Positions 6,642 to 14,121 of a stretch of DNA of 14,121 nucleotides are shown here, in pieces. Position numbers and translations under genes: made by a program. The stretch lies in IMG/VR virus record IMGVR_UViG_2778261420_000023. One strand, 5' to 3'. The first letter of the stretch is position 1; every line of letters begins with the position of its first letter. Source of the DNA: a virus. Its lineage: Duplodnaviria; Heunggongvirae; Uroviricota; Caudoviricetes. Under the pieces are notes generated by a model that was given only the letters and a program-made list of their open reading frames with translations, did no database searches and was not told the origin of the DNA.

Positions 6642-6890
6642 TTATTGTTTCACTGGCTCCCGCATTCTGCGTCTTATTTTCCACAAATATTCGATCATCG
6701 CTTCCACCTGCTCACGGTTGGTTGCGAAAATTTCCCCGGTCAGTGAGCTACGCAGAAAATCATGATGATCCACAAAAAATAACGCATCGGAAGAAAGCAA
6801 CCGACGATATTTTTTTGCTGTCGTGGTTTCCAGATCATCAAAACCATGAAGCTTTTTATGTTGCTGAACTTCTTCAAATGTCACTGGCAT
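6642..6890 (-). CDS. Hypothetical protein
   Basis: 82-aa ORF; ATG at 6890 preceded by AAGGGGGA SD; overlaps the 3' end of the ProQ/FinO-like gene by 10 nt. Confidence 0.5.
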   Translation of the reverse strand: MPVTFEEVQQHKKLHGFDDLETTTAKKYRRLLSSDALFFVDHHDFLRSSLTGEIFATNREQVEAMIEYLWKIRRRMREPVKQ

Positions 6891-7423
6891 GTATCCCCCT
6901 TTGCTGCCCGGCGCTGGCGCTTGTGCTTCTCATTCAGCACCATCAGCCGTGTTTCTGCCTCCTGCTGTTCCTGTGGTGTCACTTCCCCACATGGCTGGCC
7001 TTTCAGGTCGTAACGTGCGCCACCAGCTATCAGGGCGCGGTAATAGCGCGGAGACTGCGCATAGGATGCCAGCGTCGCACGTAATACCCCCGACCCGAAT
7101 GCCAGCCCCCTGACGGCGATATCCTGCATCAGGTCGTCGAATATCCCCACCTTAAGCGGCTTCGGTGCTTTATGGCTGAATAAGTCAGGCCACATCTCAG
7201 TGAGGCGGTTAACGCGTCGGCGGTTTTTGCGCTGCCTTTTGGTCATATGCTGCCACGGTGTCGCCCCTGCGGTCTTCTGTTTGCGGCTCTGCTGTGCGTT
7301 CTGATTATCGGGTATCACTTTATGCGCCGATGTGGTTTTATCCTGCTCTTGCGCCGCCTGCGTCGTTTTCTGCGGCGTGCCGTAAATGCCTTTCGGCTTC
7401 CGGTTAATGGTCAGCGTTGTCAT
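6881..7423 (-). CDS. ProQ/FinO-domain RNA-binding protein (RNA chaperone-like)
   Basis: PKPLKVGIFDDLMQDIA...LRATLASYAQSPRYYRALIAGGARYDLKGQPCGEV aligns by eye with the E. coli ProQ N-terminal FinO domain (PLKIGIFQDL...LRSALRLYTSSWRYL...RVDLDGNPCGEL). Basic N- and C-terminal extensions. ATG at 7423 with GGGGGAAGG SD. Confidence 0.75.
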   Translation of the reverse strand: MTTLTINRKPKGIYGTPQKTTQAAQEQDKTTSAHKVIPDNQNAQQSRKQKTAGATPWQHMTKRQRKNRRRVNRLTEMWPDLFSHKAPKPLKVGIFDDLMQDIAVRGLAFGSGVLRATLASYAQSPRYYRALIAGGARYDLKGQPCGEVTPQEQQEAETRLMVLNEKHKRQRRAAKGDTCQ

Positions 7424-7459: not shown

Positions 7460-7885
7460 TTAAAACGGTATGTTATCCCCGTACGGGTCATCGTGCTGGC
7501 TTGTCTGTTGTTTTGCCCTGTTCAGTGCGTCAGTGGCCTGGCCCTGTTGACCTTTTTTGCCGCCCGGTCGCGCCGTTCGCGCACTGATTACGCTGTCTGC
7601 AATAACCTGCCAGCCCTGCCGCGTTTCCCCGTTCTGGCCTGTCCACTGGCTCACCTGCATGTTACCCGCCACGCTCACCAGTTCGCCTTTGTGGTGTTTT
7701 GCCAGTGCGTCGGCCTGTCTGCCAAACGCCAGGACAGATAACCACATCGTCGCCGTTCCGTCATCTGCCTGGCTGCACGGCAGGGGAACCGCCATACTCG
7801 CCATCGCCATTTGTGTCCCTTTGCTGGTGGTCTTTAACTGCGGGTCAGCCACCAGCCGCCCGTAAGCCGCTATCTGTGCTGTCAT
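7460..7885 (-). CDS. Single-stranded DNA-binding protein-like (divergent SSB)
   Basis: OB-fold-like pattern (IAAYGRLVADPQLK...WLSVLAFGRQADALAKHHKGELVSVAGNMQVSQWTGQNGETRQGWQVIAD) parallels E. coli SSB, with a Gly/Gln-rich linker and acidic C-terminal DNIPF tail (compare DDDIPF). ATG at 7885 with GGAGAA SD. Confidence 0.65.
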   Translation of the reverse strand: MTAQIAAYGRLVADPQLKTTSKGTQMAMASMAVPLPCSQADDGTATMWLSVLAFGRQADALAKHHKGELVSVAGNMQVSQWTGQNGETRQGWQVIADSVISARTARPGGKKGQQGQATDALNRAKQQTSQHDDPYGDNIPF

Positions 7886-7949
7886 GCTGTCTGTTCTCCG
7901 GTTTTAACGTTGATTGTTACGCTTGTTTACACCCTTACGGTGAAATTCT

Positions 7950-8072
7950 GCGGGTTATAATCGCACTTTTGCGGGTTATAACTGCCGTTTTGCGGGTTAC
8001 GTGCGGGTTATTGATTTCCTTTTTATTCATGCAGTTAATGCACTTATACACAGGATAACCCGCATAACCCGC
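7950..8072. repeat. Candidate replication origin: four direct GCGGGTTA iterons, an AT-rich spacer and two inverted copies
   Basis: Direct copies start at 7950, 7971, 7992 and 8003 (21/21/11-bp spacing); AT-rich 8011-8050; inverted ATAACCCGC at 8055-8063 and 8064-8072. Immediately 3' of the primase/helicase gene. Confidence 0.6.
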
Positions 8073-8095: not shown

Positions 8096-10219
8096 TTAAT
8101 CTTCTGCCTCAGGCTGGAACATCAGCACGTAAAAAACATGCTGCTTCCCCCCAATTTTGCTGAGCGCCTTTTTCTTGTAACGGCGGTCGTTCCCCTTTTC
8201 CAGCATCCCCGCCGCATCAAGCGCTCTTGCAAAATGCGACGGGTTAAATCCCTGTGCGATCTCACCTTCAAACACATGCGGGAACGTGTAAAAACGGAAC
8301 TCGTCATCTTCGTTTCTGATACTCCCCTTTCTGTATCCGGCAAGTTCTTTAATCGGTAAATCACGCTCGTCGGTGTTGGGCCACGGAAGGTATCTGCTGA
8401 ATCCGAACGACGCTAAAAAAGCCTCTGCCTGTTCAACCATCTGTTTAAATTCCCTGTTACCCGTGCCGAACTCCTTCACCCAGGCATTAAAATTATGCTG
8501 TATGGCATCGCGGCACGCCTGAACATCCCAGCCAGTAATATGACCGGACAACACTAACGCCGCCTCAAGCATGGCAAATCGCTCCCCCACACGGTGAACC
8601 TGTTCGCCGTAGCTCTCCGGTATCAGGTTGCGCCACCGTTCACGGCATGCCCTTACCGTGTCCTTTGCTTCCTGCTGGTGGTTTGCCAGCCATTTAACCC
8701 ACTCTCGACCCGCCGCCCCGTGATTTTCTGTCCAGGCATCCTTTAACGCGTCTGCGTGCGCCTTTCCGGTGCTGTATTCGTGAAACTGCGTGGCTTTTTC
8801 CATCGGCACGTTAAGCAGGCGGACAAGCTGCCCCGCCTTGACTTTTATCCCCTCCGTTTTGAGGAATGTTTCAACGTCCATTTCTCCGGTGCTGATTGCC
8901 ACCGTGCGCCAGTGTTTGATCTCCCTGTTGCCGCCGTCCTTCGCCCCCTGTAATTTCCCCGAACCGTTAAACAGCGTATAGGCTGACGTGGACACCTCCC
9001 GCGCGTTTCCGGCCTGACCTATTTCATCCAGGGGTAACAGCCCGTCATTATGCGCTTCGGCCTCGTTGGCGATACCTAACGCCGTGCCGTACCAGGTCAG
9101 CCGTTGTGCGTCCGGCTCTCCCCATAAACTGGATGCGATGTTCTGTGTGGTGGTTTTCCCTGCCGATGACTGTTCGAAAAGATGTACCCCGAAGCCGTCA
9201 GCCCCCACCAGCCCGATTAATGGTGCGGATAACGATACCGCCACACCCAGCATCATGGACGGATTACCACCAGCCAGCCGCGCCACGGTATCGCGCCAAC
9301 CCTCCGCCGTTCCTGCCACGGAATAGCCATTAACAGCAGCCGTTTTTCCGGTAAACAGGGCTGGCTTTTCGCAATCACCAATGACCGAACCGTCCGGCAT
9401 GATGTACGCGCCAAAATGCCAGCCCGTTGTTGTGCTTAACTGCCATTCCTCATGGCTTCCGCTTAACTGCATCCAGTCAGCCAGGATAGCCCTGTATTTG
9501 CCGTTAGTTGTTACGTTCAGTCCGTGGTCTTTCAGCAGCCGCCAGCCGTCACGGTCGCCAATGCCACCGCACGGAACCGCCATTGTGATGACTTCATGGT
9601 TTGCTAATTTTTTCCAGCGCATCACGCGGTAATGCTCTTTACCGATTGTTCCCGTTCCCAGTAGTTCAAGCGGGGAACATAACCACGTCTCAGGCCGGAT
9701 AATTTCGCCTGACTGCTTATCCACTTTTGGCGTTACCCAGAAAACACCATCGGCGCGACTTTCAACGCGGGGCTTTAATTCATCATCGCCCTGGCTTTCT
9801 GTAATTTTTTTCTTTAAAGGCAACACCAGACTTTCCCCGCGCTCGTATTCGTCTTTGAGGCGAGGCAACTGGTCGGATAAATCCGCCGGGCTGGTGTCAG
9901 TTATCCCCGCGTATTCGTATACGGTCTTCACGCCAGCCACAGCCAGCAACGTGACGATCTGTGTAAGGCTACGTTCAGTGATGTGCCCTGCGCGGTAAAT
10001 ACGCACACACTGACGGCTATCATCAATAATTTGATAACCGGTAATATCTTTCAGGTGTTCATCTGACAGAACGACAGGTGGCACATTGTCGGCGGCAATA
10101 TGCTTACCTGCCCATTCCTGCCACTCTTTCGCATGGCTCCACGCATCACTACCTGCAAAGATGATTACCTCCGTCATTTTGTCGGCTGGCTGGTGCTTTA
10201 AGTTTGGTGCGCGCTTCAT
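8096..10219 (-). CDS. Primase/helicase-like replication initiator with P-loop NTPase domain
   Basis: 707 aa; Walker A (EQSSAGKTTTQ) and Walker B-like (GLLPLDEIGQ) motifs; N-terminal region may be a toprim/primase-type domain (EVIIFAGSDAW, unverified). ATG at 10219 overlaps the upstream stop (ATGA). Confidence 0.75.
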   Translation of the reverse strand: MKRAPNLKHQPADKMTEVIIFAGSDAWSHAKEWQEWAGKHIAADNVPPVVLSDEHLKDITGYQIIDDSRQCVRIYRAGHITERSLTQIVTLLAVAGVKTVYEYAGITDTSPADLSDQLPRLKDEYERGESLVLPLKKKITESQGDDELKPRVESRADGVFWVTPKVDKQSGEIIRPETWLCSPLELLGTGTIGKEHYRVMRWKKLANHEVITMAVPCGGIGDRDGWRLLKDHGLNVTTNGKYRAILADWMQLSGSHEEWQLSTTTGWHFGAYIMPDGSVIGDCEKPALFTGKTAAVNGYSVAGTAEGWRDTVARLAGGNPSMMLGVAVSLSAPLIGLVGADGFGVHLFEQSSAGKTTTQNIASSLWGEPDAQRLTWYGTALGIANEAEAHNDGLLPLDEIGQAGNAREVSTSAYTLFNGSGKLQGAKDGGNREIKHWRTVAISTGEMDVETFLKTEGIKVKAGQLVRLLNVPMEKATQFHEYSTGKAHADALKDAWTENHGAAGREWVKWLANHQQEAKDTVRACRERWRNLIPESYGEQVHRVGERFAMLEAALVLSGHITGWDVQACRDAIQHNFNAWVKEFGTGNREFKQMVEQAEAFLASFGFSRYLPWPNTDERDLPIKELAGYRKGSIRNEDDEFRFYTFPHVFEGEIAQGFNPSHFARALDAAGMLEKGNDRRYKKKALSKIGGKQHVFYVLMFQPEAED

Positions 10220-10755: not shown

Positions 10756-10990
10756 AATCGCCCCCGCCATTTTCACAATCAGCAATCAGGATGGCTTTAG
10801 CCTCATTCAGCGCCATATCAGCGGTAAGCTGTGCGTAAGCCAGCGAATGCGGGATTATCGCCCCTGTATATTCCGGCTCTCTGGTAATGTGTTTTTCTGC
10901 GATTGCTACCGTGCATGAAATATCAATCAGCGCGTGCATCAGCGTTTTGATGGCTTCGGCGGCTGCGTCCGGACGGGTGTTATTGCACAT
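10745..10990 (-). CDS. Hypothetical small protein
   Basis: 81-aa ORF; ATG at 10990 preceded by AGGGGGTGA SD; 11-nt overlap with the upstream gene. Confidence 0.45.
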   Translation of the reverse strand: MCNNTRPDAAAEAIKTLMHALIDISCTVAIAEKHITREPEYTGAIIPHSLAYAQLTADMALNEAKAILIADCENGGGDYAK

Positions 10991-11192
10991 GTCTCACCCC
11001 CTGAATATTCGCGTTAATCATTCCGGCACGTTCTGCGAGTTCCTGTAATGATTCCCTTGTTGCGACAATGGCTTCATCTGGCAGGTGGTAATTACACACC
11101 ACGCGACCTTTATCCACATTGACCAGTAGCTGCCCGGTAAATTTCTCACGAAACTGAACGCGGTTAAGGTCGGTAAGTGACAGGTTAATCAT
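10980..11192 (-). CDS. Hypothetical small protein
   Basis: Start placed at ATG 11192 (MINLSLTDLN...), preceded by GGGGGAAG SD; 8-nt overlap (ATGATTAA) with the upstream ORF stop. Confidence 0.45.
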   Translation of the reverse strand: MINLSLTDLNRVQFREKFTGQLLVNVDKGRVVCNYHLPDEAIVATRESLQELAERAGMINANIQGVRHVQ

Positions 11193-11388
11193 GGTCTTCC
11201 CCCTGGCGAATACGGGCAGCAAATACCATCACGCAGCCATCAGGAGATTGCTGACGCGCTTCCTGTTCGCTGGTGGCCTCAATGGTAATCACGCGCGGTT
11301 GTGCCGTGCTCAGGGCGATAAAACGCCAGATGTATTTATTCAGGTTGTACGAGTCCCGCCCTTGCGGGTGTCTGGTATAATTTCTCAT
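11185..11388 (-). CDS. Hypothetical small protein, first gene of the leftward operon
   Basis: 67-aa C-terminal segment of the long track ORF, starting at ATG 11388 with GAGG SD 6-7 nt upstream; the rest of the 370-aa ORF is judged spurious. Confidence 0.35.
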   Translation of the reverse strand: MRNYTRHPQGRDSYNLNKYIWRFIALSTAQPRVITIEATSEQEARQQSPDGCVMVFAARIRQGEDHD

Positions 11389-11464
11389 AGCTGCCTCGAT
11401 ACGCTTTCTATCGTTGGTGGTTAGACGCCCTGCATGTGTGCCACCACTGCGGGGCGTTGTTGTT

Positions 11465-11514
11465 TGGTGCATTGCACCATTCGGTTTTAACCTATCAATA
11501 AGTGAATCGCACTT
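11465..11514. promoter_or_regulatory. Palindromic operator-like sites in the divergent control region
   Basis: TGGTGCA-T-TGCACCA (11465-11479) and AAGTG-AATCG-CACTT (11500-11514); the core TGAATCGCAC recurs at 11548-11557 overlapping a TATACT -10-like hexamer (11543-11548) upstream of the plus-strand RHH gene. Confidence 0.5.
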
Positions 11515-11578
11515 CAAGCCTTTCTCTGAAATTTTTTTTGTGTATACTGAATCGCACCAACTTAGAGAGGATTCAGTA

Positions 11579-11758
11579 ATGGCAACAGGTTCAACAAATA
11601 ATAAGTCGCAACAGTTAAATGCCAGATTCCCGCATGATGTTGTTGCAGACTTAGAAAAAAATTTAGATGAAGGTGAAAGCAAGGCGCAATTTATAGTTAC
11701 TGCCGTTAAAGGTGAGATCAAACGCCGCCAGCGCCGCAAGGCCAAAGAGCAGGAGTAA
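11579..11758 (+). CDS. Small ribbon-helix-helix-like DNA-binding protein (candidate repressor/switch protein)
   Basis: 59 aa (MATGSTNNKSQQLNARFPHDVVADLEKNLDEGESKAQFIVTAVKGEIKRRQRRKAKEQE): beta-strand-then-helices pattern typical of Arc/MetJ/CopG proteins, basic tail. ATG at 11579 with GAGAGG SD 8 nt upstream. One of only two plus-strand genes called. Confidence 0.5.
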   Translation: MATGSTNNKSQQLNARFPHDVVADLEKNLDEGESKAQFIVTAVKGEIKRRQRRKAKEQE

Positions 11759-11815
11759 CCATCACCAGCGCCGTGGTGTAAGGTATTACGGCGCATTGCT
11801 ATGCAGGACAACACA

Positions 11816-11989
11816 ATGACCGATAAAGAATTGACCAAAACATTATCACCGACACGGAAAAGACGGCGCAGAAAGATAGAGCATGAATCAGAAAGATTCG
11901 CGCCATGTGCTTTTGCCCTTGAGCAATTCCTTAAAGAGTACAGGGAAAAGCGCTCATTGCAGGTATGGCAACGAACTGAACCAGACTGA
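11816..11989 (+). CDS. Hypothetical small basic protein
   Basis: 57 aa from ATG 11816 (AGGA 8 nt upstream), downstream of the RHH gene and upstream of a plus-strand terminator; no motif recognised. Confidence 0.3.
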   Translation: MTDKELTKTLSPTRKRRRRKIEHESERFAPCAFALEQFLKEYREKRSLQVWQRTEPD

Positions 11990-12055
11990 TTGCATTGCCC
12001 ACCAGCCGCAAATGTGGCATTGTTGGTGATGCTTTTGTTTTCCCTTGTTCCCACT

Positions 12056-12085
12056 GGCGACCCTTTTGCGGTCGCCTTTGTTTTG
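12056..12085 (+). terminator. Rho-independent terminator of the short plus-strand unit
   Basis: GGCGACC-cttttgc-GGTCGCC stem-loop (12056-12076) followed by TTTGTTTTG. Confidence 0.55.
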
Positions 12086-12122
12086 CCTGTTATCCGGCAA
12101 TAGTGGCGCTTCACCACACGGT

Positions 12123-12208
12123 TGATATAATTCCCCTGCACTGATCCATTTTTTTCGCAGCAGGTTAATTGTTCAGAAAGGCGGTTCCTTATCGGGGCCG
12201 CTTTTTTT
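12123..12208 (+). ncRNA. Candidate small RNA unit: extended -10 promoter plus intrinsic terminator with no ORF between
   Basis: TGATATAAT at 12123-12131 matches extended -10 consensus TGnTATAAT; an 8-bp-stem hairpin (12181-12201, two G.U pairs) is followed by seven T (12202-12208). Predicted transcript about 70 nt, antisense to read-through from alpA. Confidence 0.3.
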
Positions 12209-12349
12209 ATGCCTGAAAATACCCGATAACATGGCTTTTTAGTTTCACCAGGACGAACGAAGCCCCGCCCCTGTTCGGGCGTATATCCAGTATTCATGGT
12301 TAGATCTCTGTGTTAGTGGATGGGTGGCGGCGGTGCGCCGCCAGCCTGA

Positions 12350-12553
12350 TTAGTGAACTGCCTCGCGGCTGTCCTTCCATGCCAGAACTTCGGATAAAGA
12401 CCAGCCAACGGAACGACCGCCGAGTTTACGCCGTGATGGGAATTGTCCAGTCTTCTCCAGGCGATACCGACATGAGCGGCTCAGGCCTGTAAGTTGCTGA
12501 CATTCTTTTTCACGTATAAAGCGATCAGCGCTTAACACTATTGCCTCCGTCAT
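12350..12553 (-). CDS. alpA: AlpA-family transcriptional regulator / excisionase-like protein
   Basis: 67 aa; LTGLSRSCRYRLEKTGQFPSRRKLGGRSVGWSLSEVLAWK matches the AlpA helix-turn-helix signature (TGLSRSTIYRL..G.FP....LG.R.VGW...E...W). Confidence 0.85.
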   Translation of the reverse strand: MTEAIVLSADRFIREKECQQLTGLSRSCRYRLEKTGQFPSRRKLGGRSVGWSLSEVLAWKDSREAVH

Positions 12554-12570
12554 TTCTCAAAGAGTCATTT

Positions 12571-12600
12571 GGTGTCTTATTGTGTCGTATTGTTCCCGCT
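12571..12600. promoter_or_regulatory. Three 10-bp-phased TGTSTC/TTGTTCC repeats 18-47 bp upstream of the alpA start codon
   Basis: ggtgtcttat / tgtgtcgtat / tgttcccgct; same motif family as the arrays at 12811-12870 and 6563-6589. Confidence 0.45.
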
Positions 12601-12810
12601 AGAGTGATGAATGGCAAATATTGGTGACGGTCGTTTTACAGATATGGGGTAATTAGAATAAAAATACTTTTAATTCATTGTGATGTAGTAGCGTAAAATT
12701 TTGCTTTTACGCCTTTTTTACATATTTTTAAGAGTGATTCGCCAGTGTATAAAAAAACAGTATACATATAAAAATCAAATGGTTATGAATGAGTTTGATT
12801 TTTAATCCGC

Positions 12811-12870
12811 TTGTCCCATTTTGTTCCTTGTTGTTCGTCGTTGTGTCTCGTTGTTCCACGTTGTGTCCGT
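12811..12870. repeat. Six tandem degenerate 10-bp units (TTGTYCNNNN) just 3' of the integrase stop
   Basis: ttgtcccatt / ttgttccttg / ttgttcgtcg / ttgtgtctcg / ttgttccacg / ttgtgtccgt, exact 10-bp register. Confidence 0.6.
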
Positions 12871-12891
12871 TCTGAAAAATCACGAAAAAAA

Positions 12892-14121
12892 TTATATTTC
12901 TCTGGCTATTGGCAGTGTGGTTACGTTTTCGTGAGTACCTGCCAGTATCTCTAACCGCTCTGTCCACATGTCCAGCGCATTACGTTTCGCATCGAGATAA
13001 CGGGAGTGGTTATAGACTCGCTGCATCCCTGGCATCTGGTGAGCGGTGAGTTGTTCGACAATATGCGGATCCACGCCTAAATCATTCAGCATCGTGGTAA
13101 ACGTGCGCCGTATATCGTGTAGTGACCAGTGCGGATGGTTTAATTTTTTGTGCGTGAATCTGCCGTATTGCGACACGCTGGCTTCCTGTTTCAGTTCCCC
13201 GAGTAATAGCCCTGTGTGTCGGTTCTGCTCCACCAGCCGTGTGACGAACGGTAAAATGCTTTCCGGTATTGGCCTGAATATGGCTACCTTCGTTTTGCTG
13301 TGCTCCTTCGGTACTGTCCAGAGCATTTCCTTAAAATCCCACTCCCTGATCTCCGACAGCCTCAGTTCTCCGGTTCGGCAACCAAACACAATCAGGAGGC
13401 GGATTAGTGCGCTGTAGTAGGGCGGGAATATTTTTTTATCCAGCGCCTGTAATAATTCGCCCAGTTCTTTGTTACTAAGCACGCGTTCGCTTATGCCTGG
13501 TTTTTTACCAACGTCCACCACGTTGAGATCATCCAGAGCGTTACTGACGGCATAGCGGCGTTTACGACAGAATTTAAGCGCCTGTTTGCACGCCTGCATC
13601 ATGTGACCAGACGTTACGGGGGATTTTTTGCGTATCCGGTCAAAACAGGCCAGCCAGTGACGTAATTCGCATTTATCCAGTGGCATGTTACCGATGTGCT
13701 GTATGACGTGATTATTCAGGCGACTTTTCAGGCATACATAATCGACACGGTTTTCCTTTACGTGCGTTTCCAGCCAGTAACTGATCGCATCGCCAACCGT
13801 TACGGGTTTTAACGCTTCCTGCACAGTGTAGTTCAGTTCATGACGTGGGTTTTTCCCTTCTGCCAGCCATGCACGACACTTTGCGGCTTTTTCCCTGGCT
13901 GCTTTAAGGCTCAGATCGGGATAGTTTCCCAGCTTCAGACGTTCCGGTGTGGTATCCCTTCCCGTTCCAGCCCTGTAGGTGAAGTACCAGGTCAATTTAC
14001 CTGATGTTAAATATTTCACGCTCAGATTACCGCCATCGCTATAGAACGTATTTTTCTCCGCTGGCTTACCATAAAGTTTTCTTAACAATGTATCGTTCAG
14101 TTTGTTAAGCGCTCTGCTCAC
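12892..14121 (-). CDS. int: Tyrosine site-specific integrase, P4-type with N-terminal arm-binding domain
   Basis: 409 aa; N-terminus resembles the DUF4102 arm-binding region of CP4-57 IntA; catalytic signature present (GCRTGELR, HDIRRT, LTAHQ, RVYNHSRYL). The start is GTG at 14121..14119 on the window edge, so the true start may lie beyond the window. Confidence 0.88.
   Translation of the reverse strand: MSRALNKLNDTLLRKLYGKPAEKNTFYSDGGNLSVKYLTSGKLTWYFTYRAGTGRDTTPERLKLGNYPDLSLKAAREKAAKCRAWLAEGKNPRHELNYTVQEALKPVTVGDAISYWLETHVKENRVDYVCLKSRLNNHVIQHIGNMPLDKCELRHWLACFDRIRKKSPVTSGHMMQACKQALKFCRKRRYAVSNALDDLNVVDVGKKPGISERVLSNKELGELLQALDKKIFPPYYSALIRLLIVFGCRTGELRLSEIREWDFKEMLWTVPKEHSKTKVAIFRPIPESILPFVTRLVEQNRHTGLLLGELKQEASVSQYGRFTHKKLNHPHWSLHDIRRTFTTMLNDLGVDPHIVEQLTAHQMPGMQRVYNHSRYLDAKRNALDMWTERLEILAGTHENVTTLPIAREI

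Follow-up and report, generated by a model that had tools for sequence, protein, structure and literature searches.

Results

Gene content of the island and position of the candidate unit

The window, by which we mean the whole 14,121-nucleotide stretch of IMG/VR record IMGVR_UViG_2778261420_000023, is on its gene content a capsid-forming PICI satellite (cf-PICI). Domain matches and the annotation of L001, a 99.6% identical E. coli locus with exactly the same gene annotation, supply the cf-PICI gene set of int, alpA and primase together with capsid, protease, portal, connector, HNH and terminase genes. This gene set agrees with the description of EcCIEDL933 (bioRxiv 10.1101/2022.09.08.507074). 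AlpA has been described as the activator of PICI induction (PMC6092414). In addition to the minus-strand genes listed in Table 1, the island carries a DUF4222 gene, an SSB gene and several small ORFs on that strand.

Between alpA and the icd-like gene lies a plus-strand cassette that is opposed to the rest of the island. A preliminary description of this DNA had placed a candidate small RNA between the ribbon-helix-helix (RHH) unit and alpA, and the gene map bears out this location: along the plus strand the order is RHH, orf62, an intrinsic terminator (T1) and the candidate unit, with alpA convergent. The candidate unit is the point at which the plus-strand cassette and the minus-strand int-alpA operon meet head-on.

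Table 1. Genes and predicted elements of the window, with the basis for each assignment
Feature	Position	Strand	Basis and remarks
int	12892-14121	-	
alpA, PICI induction activator	12350-12553	-	Pfam Phage_AlpA, E = 3.4e-18; convergent with the predicted sRNA
Stop-free frame, 370 codons	11185-12297	-	ORF list; runs from an ATG (12297) close behind alpA as far as the stop codon of icd; proposed cis target
icd-like gene (host cell division inhibitor Icd-like protein)	11185-11388	-	NCBIfam NF033153, E = 1.5e-18; PGAP annotation in L001
DUF927 primase	8096-10219	-	Domain match
ProQ/FinO-domain RNA chaperone	6881-7423	-	Pfam ProQ, E = 8.5e-24
Second extended -10, perfect, TGGTATAAT	11373-11381	+	Overlaps icd-like start region (ATG 11388-11386)
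Second predicted RNA, structured, ~80-100 nt	11373-11489 (unit)	+	Starts at the icd ATG
YlcI/YnfO-family RHH gene, first of cassette	11579-11758	+	NCBIfam NF041551, E = 1.5e-17; annotated in related genomes
orf62, second of cassette	11801-11989	+	ORF list; hypothetical protein in L001; conserved in many islands
T1 intrinsic terminator, GGCGACC-CTTTTGC-GGTCGCC then TTTGTTTTG	12056-12085	+	Terminator scan; ends the RHH-orf62 operon
Inverted repeat GTGGCG-CTT-CACCAC, possible operator	12103-12117		At the -35 position of the candidate promoter
Extended -10, perfect, TGATATAAT	12123-12131	+	Sequence; TGnTATAAT
Predicted sRNA, ~71 nt	12138-12208	+	Start predicted 7 nt after the -10; end, U7 tail
Conserved single-stranded core CGCAGCAGGTTAATTGTTC, 19 nt	12156-12174	+	Alignment of BLAST-derived loci
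T2 terminator: GCGGTTCC (12181-12188), loop TTATC, GGGGCCGC (12194-12201), T7 (12202-12208)	12181-12208	+	Sequence, folding

Anatomy of the candidate unit

The preliminary description had reported an extended -10 element followed about 50 bp later by a strong hairpin and a seven-T tract, with no coding sequence between. All of these elements are present, and the GC-rich T2 hairpin begins 50 bp past the -10. The ORF list contains no plus-strand ORF of at least 40 aa between promoter and terminator, and the sole start codon that we could read within the unit opens a 15-codon TTG frame without a Shine-Dalgarno sequence. Like bacterial sRNA genes in general, the unit has a Rho-independent terminator and lacks coding potential on its own strand.

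The promoter is predicted mainly from its -10. The TGNTATAAT pattern has two matches in the 14-kb window where shuffled sequences lead us to expect 0.36, and at least two matches were found in 10 of 200 shuffles. The -35 match of the candidate promoter is poor (GTGGCG). It coincides with a dyad, and in L017 and L021 this dyad is swapped for TGGTC-ATTTC-GACCA with its symmetry retained. The retained symmetry suggests an operator, or else a hairpin in RNA, that changes along with the type of island.

The predicted sRNA would consist of a largely unstructured 5' part of about 37 nt containing a U7 run, followed by the core, the terminator hairpin and the U7 tail. The segment 12135-12210 folds at -26.8 kcal/mol (z = -3.98), and none of 200 shuffles equalled it. 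A simple terminator scan listed T1, at 12056-12076, and did not list T2, possibly since the A-run upstream of T2 can pair with part of its T-run. T1 lies 38 bp upstream of the candidate promoter. Judged by this arrangement, T1 insulates the candidate unit from the RHH-orf62 cassette, and the succession of terminator, promoter, about 71 nt and terminator is the layout of a stand-alone gene.

Conservation of promoter, core and hairpin

Conservation was followed in a BLAST-derived alignment of the window and ten loci that carry a 98-nt promoter-bearing piece of the unit, and in about 100 further satellite contigs found by a pattern scan of IMG/VR. TGATATAAT is unchanged in all 11 BLAST-derived loci. 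It is kept in 22 of the 23 distinct promoter-bearing versions, at a fixed distance although substitutions surround it, and the one exception (L033) has TGATATAAC. Over these 23 versions the predicted RNA is 72-76 nt long. As about 75% of the alignment columns are invariant, with a roughly estimated chance expectation of ~0.07 for an invariant 9-nt block, the invariance of the -10 would not be a decisive statistic in sequences so similar.

The core, CGCAG[C/T]AGGTTAATTGTTC, lies directly 5' of the hairpin and is invariant in the BLAST-derived alignment save for the one C/T position. The most divergent islands share only this core part of the intergenic region (query 167-222).

Both terminators keep their structure as their sequence changes. 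The T1 stem covaries between islands, from GGCGACC/GGTCGCC to GGCCACC/GGTGGCC. The T2 hairpin exists in two types at the same position, the first being GCGGYTCC-loop-GGGGCCGC with T7 and the second GCGCTCCG-GCAA-CGGGGCGC with TTTTTGTTTTT. One pair of the T2 stem shows the series C-G, U-G, U-A. All 37 distinct versions of core plus hairpin give stable folds (-12.6 to -21.2 kcal/mol), and in each the stem is followed by a T-run.

In 18 of 19 distinct versions the plus-strand RNA forms the more stable hairpin, with a mean of -13.6 kcal/mol against -9.1 kcal/mol for the minus strand, because the stems use G-U pairs that become C-A mismatches on the other strand. This wobble asymmetry is, at the level of predicted folding, strand-specific evidence for a plus-strand RNA structure. 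RNAalifold predicted this single conserved hairpin and no conserved structure 5' of it, so the RNA would be a single-stranded 5' part of about 37 nt followed by a terminator. We rejected a possible conserved 5' stem, CCUGC/GCAGG, to which RNAalifold gave no pairing; it lies partly upstream of the likely start, and its compensatory change is ambiguous in register.

Distribution and island variants

Of 5426 complete E. coli genomes, 289 carry the whole 98-nt piece (12085-12182), which holds the promoter and the 5' half of the RNA, with an identity of 80-100%. The candidate unit is also present in EcCICFT073, the model Gram-negative PICI, where it occupies ~1380007-1380104 of NC_004431.1, minus strand. 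Collections of phages gave no matches and collections of plasmids gave four, all partial; a search of genome contigs of other species with AlpA gave three loci. The downstream neighbour differs among islands, being alpA, another HTH gene or a BRO-N gene, and the sequence past the T-run is unrelated.

The islands fall into several arrangements. Variant A, to which the window belongs, has T1, promoter, core and hairpin. Variants B and C, found for example in O55:H7 and Shigella, have the core and hairpin preceded by a different 62-nt piece, with no T1 and no conserved promoter; together they make up about a third of island versions. On this layout, the core and hairpin of variants B and C are simply the 3' end of the RHH-orf62 mRNA. 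A third configuration (L144) has T1 alone between the convergent operons, abutting the convergent gene.

These variants qualify two parts of the preliminary description. A self-contained plus-strand unit is supported for variant A, in which promoter, a spacing of ~72-75 nt and terminator travel together across differing flanks, T1 lies upstream and the hairpin favours the plus strand; it is not universal, as about a third of related islands lack the promoter. Likewise, the expectation that the promoter-like element would be kept in relatives holds for the promoter-bearing versions and not for the remaining third, which have no recognisable promoter.

The same variants bear on a simpler explanation, that T2 merely shields alpA from antisense transcription coming from RHH-orf62, that TGATATAAT is incidental or weak and that the short RNA has no function. 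RHH-orf62 has no other terminator than this hairpin in variants B and C, with no promoter before it, and the element always sits exactly at the junction of two convergent units; the conservation of the -10 is also statistically indecisive. However, in variant A the operon already ends at T1, and a second terminator 100 bp further on needs a start between the two. The islands with T1 alone show that T1 suffices. A perfect extended -10 at a fixed distance in nearly all promoter-bearing versions, and a 19-nt core conserved beyond the needs of a terminator, are likewise unexpected for a mere shield. We consider a terminator without an RNA function unlikely.

A conserved core and a possible trans-acting RNA

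A different explanation would make GGUUAAUUGUUC the seed of a trans-acting sRNA, directed against host or helper-phage mRNAs with the help of Hfq or a ProQ/FinO-type chaperone and made either from its own promoter (variant A) or by processing of the RHH-orf62 3' end (variants B and C). This core, just 5' of the terminator, shows the strongest conservation and is common to all variants while the flanks differ, which is the pattern of a seed region and also that of 3'-UTR sRNAs with or without a promoter of their own. The AU-rich single-stranded region, terminator and long U-tail have an Hfq-like layout.

A ProQ/FinO gene is also present in the island. In comparisons restricted to loci of 9 kb or more, homologues were found in 11 of 47 promoter-bearing loci and in none of 27 others (one-sided p ~0.004, calculated by hand and uncorrected for relatedness). 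This protein is a possible partner of the sRNA. Against a trans-acting role, most promoter-bearing islands have no ProQ gene and the island offers no convincing target. Matches to k-mers of the seed within the island are at chance level, with two 9-mers against about 1.6 expected by our own estimate. Comparison of the island's translation-initiation regions with shuffled seeds gave nothing robust after multiple testing, and duplex scans with the whole RNA within the island were uninformative. One in-island candidate, a 13-bp match with three G-U pairs between the core and the first four codons, start codon included, of the ORF after icd (AUGAUUAACCUGU, 11181-11193, minus strand), exists only where that ORF occurs and is probably due to chance. 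Overall a trans-acting RNA seems to us unlikely, with the core common to all variants and the distribution of the ProQ/FinO gene in its favour.

A long open frame opposite the cassette

The preliminary description overlooked a 370-codon minus-strand ORF that covers the whole candidate interval. This long frame is antisense to the predicted sRNA, T1, orf62 and the RHH gene; relative to it, each of the two plus-strand genes uses the antisense frame that shares its wobble positions. In 68 of 101 distinct loci the frame continues without a stop past the sRNA core, back to the end of alpA or of the BRO-N gene. Its length ranges from 334 to 820 codons where the other frames have 15-49 stops, and it stays open through non-homologous cassettes. 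Further examples lie at 2198-3142 in L002 and at 9148-11565 in L026. In the latter there are two tandem plus-strand cassettes (RHH-like and orf62-like), and an 805-codon minus-strand frame spans both.

We considered and rejected the possibility that the long frame encodes a conserved folded protein. The Icd-like domain covers residues 322-365 only; the rest has no Pfam match, and amino-acid conservation is confined to the last ~45 residues. Read in the minus frame, most substitutions in the interval alter the amino acid (C to Y, E to A, N to I, G to E, V to E). The simplest reading is that the open frame reflects selection for uninterrupted translation and not for a protein, with the translation itself something we infer from the absence of stop codons alone.

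PGAP at times annotates parts of the long frame as Icd-like or BRO-N pseudogenes. In islands of the EcCICFT073 type (L018, 1600-1869; L143, which is EcCICFT073, ~7770-8000) an internal fragment of a BRO-N gene lies between alpA and the sRNA. Over 42 aa the fragment shows 81% identity to the BRO-N gene that other islands carry intact, and it is fused in frame to the long frame. A start of the long frame at a BRO-N N-terminus was rejected, the comparison giving only this internal fragment in the EcCICFT073 type.

The predicted sRNA is complementary to codons ~30-54 of the long frame in the window and to codons ~4-28, beside the start codon, in other islands. In L013 and L026 no more than ~10-20 nt separate the start codons of the long frame from the complement of the sRNA 3' end. 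The sequence that follows the hairpin on the minus strand is UUUCUG in the window, a weak U-tract, and CUUGCG in the commoner hairpin type. The minus-strand hairpin therefore has no usable U-tract, and alpA transcripts should run through it and be complementary to the predicted sRNA. This geometry agrees with the suggestion in the preliminary description of an RNA antisense to read-through from alpA. In EcCICFT073 a reporter on ORF3, the third ORF in that island's own map, was alpA-dependent (PMC6092414).

The conserved element could instead belong to the minus strand, as part of the long frame or leader. It might serve there in pausing or processing, be bypassed by RNA polymerase that AlpA has modified, or bind a protein as DNA, and its plus-strand appearance would then be secondary. 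The frame that is stop-free across the interval in two-thirds of the loci fits such a role, as does the weak U-tract in the window. Pseudomonas AlpA is a processive antiterminator that carries transcription past an intrinsic terminator downstream (PMC9371919), which would also favour it. However, the hairpin is systematically weaker on this strand, the commoner hairpin type has no U-tract there, and no protein sequence is conserved in the interval. The seven-T run and TGnTATAAT are both plus-strand signals. We regard a minus-strand function as quite improbable.

A second plus-strand unit at the start of icd

A second perfect extended -10 lies at the other end of the cassette, over the start region of icd (Table 1). 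The RNA predicted from it is highly structured (-45.1 kcal/mol, z = -4.16), with a large hairpin at 11425-11457 followed by a U-rich stretch, and its 5' end is complementary to the Shine-Dalgarno sequence and start codon of icd. The promoter (TG[G/A]TAT[A/G]AT in most) and the large hairpin are kept in 25 distinct loci. This second unit may yield an RNA that acts on icd in cis as an antisense, or it may be the leader of the RHH operon. It lends weight to the view of the plus-strand cassette as a possible control module based on RNA.

Two direct repeats, AGTGAATCGCAC and ACTGAATCGCAC (11501-11512 and 11546-11557), flank the likely promoter region of the RHH gene, and a palindrome, TGGTGCATTGCACCA (11465-11479), overlaps a possible minus-strand promoter of icd. 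The repeats and the palindrome are candidate operators for the RHH protein.

Comparison with known RNA families

No Rfam family matched the window at gathering thresholds. With E up to 10, searches of 10900-12950, 12090-12230 and 11360-11510 gave only sub-threshold matches driven by the terminator. The best match to the candidate was ctRNA_p42d, at 20.6 bits against a threshold of 50, and involved the hairpin alone. The C4 model (RF01695) gave no match at gathering thresholds or at E up to 10, and the FinP covariance model (RF00107) gave none at E up to 10. Two named RNAs were rejected as the identity of the candidate: Esr41 lies in SpLE1, and the Pas sRNAs come from lambdoid prophages. A literature search found no paper on an RNA at this position, and a full-text search for the sequence itself gave none.

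By covariance model and by architecture, the candidate fits none of the OOP, c4, P4 CI or FinP families. It appears to be a new, hitherto unannotated sRNA gene candidate of Gram-negative PICIs.

Discussion

The anatomy of the unit, its conservation as a unit, the strand specificity of its hairpin and its distribution are direct results of the comparison. The reading that we prefer, at a probability of roughly 0.45 and so a little short of even, is that the unit is an independent sRNA gene of Gram-negative PICIs, both classical and cf-PICIs, which is antisense to alpA read-through and would curb that read-through into icd. Transcription of the unit, pairing in vivo and the regulatory outcome are the parts of this reading that we infer from sequence.

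In the mechanism that we propose, the extended -10 would start plus-strand transcription near 12138 and the Rho-independent terminator would end it at 12208. The product would be an RNA of about 71 nt with a U-rich single-stranded 5' half, followed by the core GGUUAAUUGUUC and by a terminator hairpin that ends in a U-tail. Minus-strand RNA extending beyond alpA would cross the sRNA region, bearing the long translated frame on to icd, and the sRNA would pair near the 5' end of that frame. The duplex would either stop translation or lead to cleavage, and the untranslated RNA would become accessible to Rho. Basal read-through from alpA would then fail to reach icd and the replication genes until helper-driven transcription of alpA outran the sRNA.

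Two points qualify this picture. Pairing in cis alone leaves unexplained why the 19-nt core is better conserved than its flanks. Also, reading by eye we found a possible icd promoter on the minus strand at ~11497-11466, with TTGATA, a 16-nt spacer and TGgTGCAAT. As icd may have its own promoter, the downstream operon may not depend on read-through.

A close parallel to an antisense RNA of this kind is the OOP RNA of lambda, a 77-nt antisense RNA that is convergent with cII and overlaps the 3' end of the cII coding sequence. Like OOP, the candidate would be a short RNA with its own promoter, here a predicted one, and an intrinsic terminator, convergent at the 3' side of a temperate element's small regulatory gene and fully complementary to the transcript of its operon. 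Unlike OOP, it lies 141 nt past the alpA stop (a distance that shrinks to ~27 nt in some islands), its overlap is with the 5' part of the long frame that comes next, and the two have no sequence similarity.

A second parallel is with the immunity RNAs of P1 and P4. In P1, translation of icd is needed against Rho termination before ant. Biere, Citron and Schuster (1992) reportedly found that c4 of P1 and P7, an RNA of about 77 nt, silences the operon that starts with icd by a block to translation that leads to premature Rho-dependent termination. The c4 and P4 CI RNAs are cut from the sense transcript that they control and act through short repeated complementary boxes. As in P1 c4/icd-ant (immI) and P4 CI, the island has an Icd-like gene after a long frame that would be translated, together with complementary small plus-strand RNAs. 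In contrast to c4 and CI, the candidate is on the strand opposite icd, with its own predicted promoter, and would be a true cis-antisense RNA. By analogy, the proposed logic would be common to the lambda OOP RNA and the P1 c4/icd circuit.

The candidate also invites comparison with chaperone-assisted RNAs. FinP of F-like plasmids is an antisense RNA of about 70-80 nt that works with the FinO chaperone on traJ and so governs the cascade of activators behind plasmid transfer; it has two stem-loops and overlaps the traJ ribosome-binding site. As with FinP and FinO, an RNA ending in a terminator hairpin would be borne by a mobile element that also encodes a ProQ/FinO-domain protein. Unlike FinP, the candidate has one stable hairpin, and only 11 of 47 promoter-bearing loci have the ProQ/FinO gene.

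The variants recall the 3'-UTR sRNAs of enterobacteria, which have an internal promoter (DapZ, MicL) or lack one (CpxQ, SroC), and which are chromosomal, with known trans targets and Hfq binding. Here, too, a conserved seed and a terminator lie at the end of an operon, with their own predicted promoter in variant A, whereas variants B and C have none and the module runs on directly from the mRNA upstream. The candidate module differs from these RNAs in lying in the regulatory region of a satellite.

The antisense sRNA may be one arm of an unrecognised quiescence, or immunity, module of PICIs, a doubtful extension of our reading that would draw together the elements between alpA and icd. Such a module would comprise an antisense RNA at the start of icd, the RHH protein, orf62 and the sRNA, with the cassette inside a leader of 334-820 codons. 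Ribosomes on the leader would keep Rho off the PalpA transcript, allowing it to reach icd and the replication genes, and both antisense RNAs, possibly with ProQ/FinO, would gate that translation.

Gram-negative PICIs and cf-PICIs are widespread, and these satellites mobilise genes for virulence and defence; their activator, AlpA, is known. For EcCICFT073, the authors who identified AlpA as the activator found the global repressor unclear (PMC6092414). A conserved candidate sRNA that lies head-on to the alpA operon, and that is present in EcCICFT073, provides a concrete and cheap hypothesis for the missing silencing mechanism. If the quiescence module proves true, it would supply a repressor function not yet found in these satellites. 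If the RNA works in trans, several hundred sequenced E. coli genomes would carry a regulator that is encoded by a satellite and directed at genes of the host or the helper phage. Either way, the island would hold an RNA gene candidate that genome pipelines have missed.
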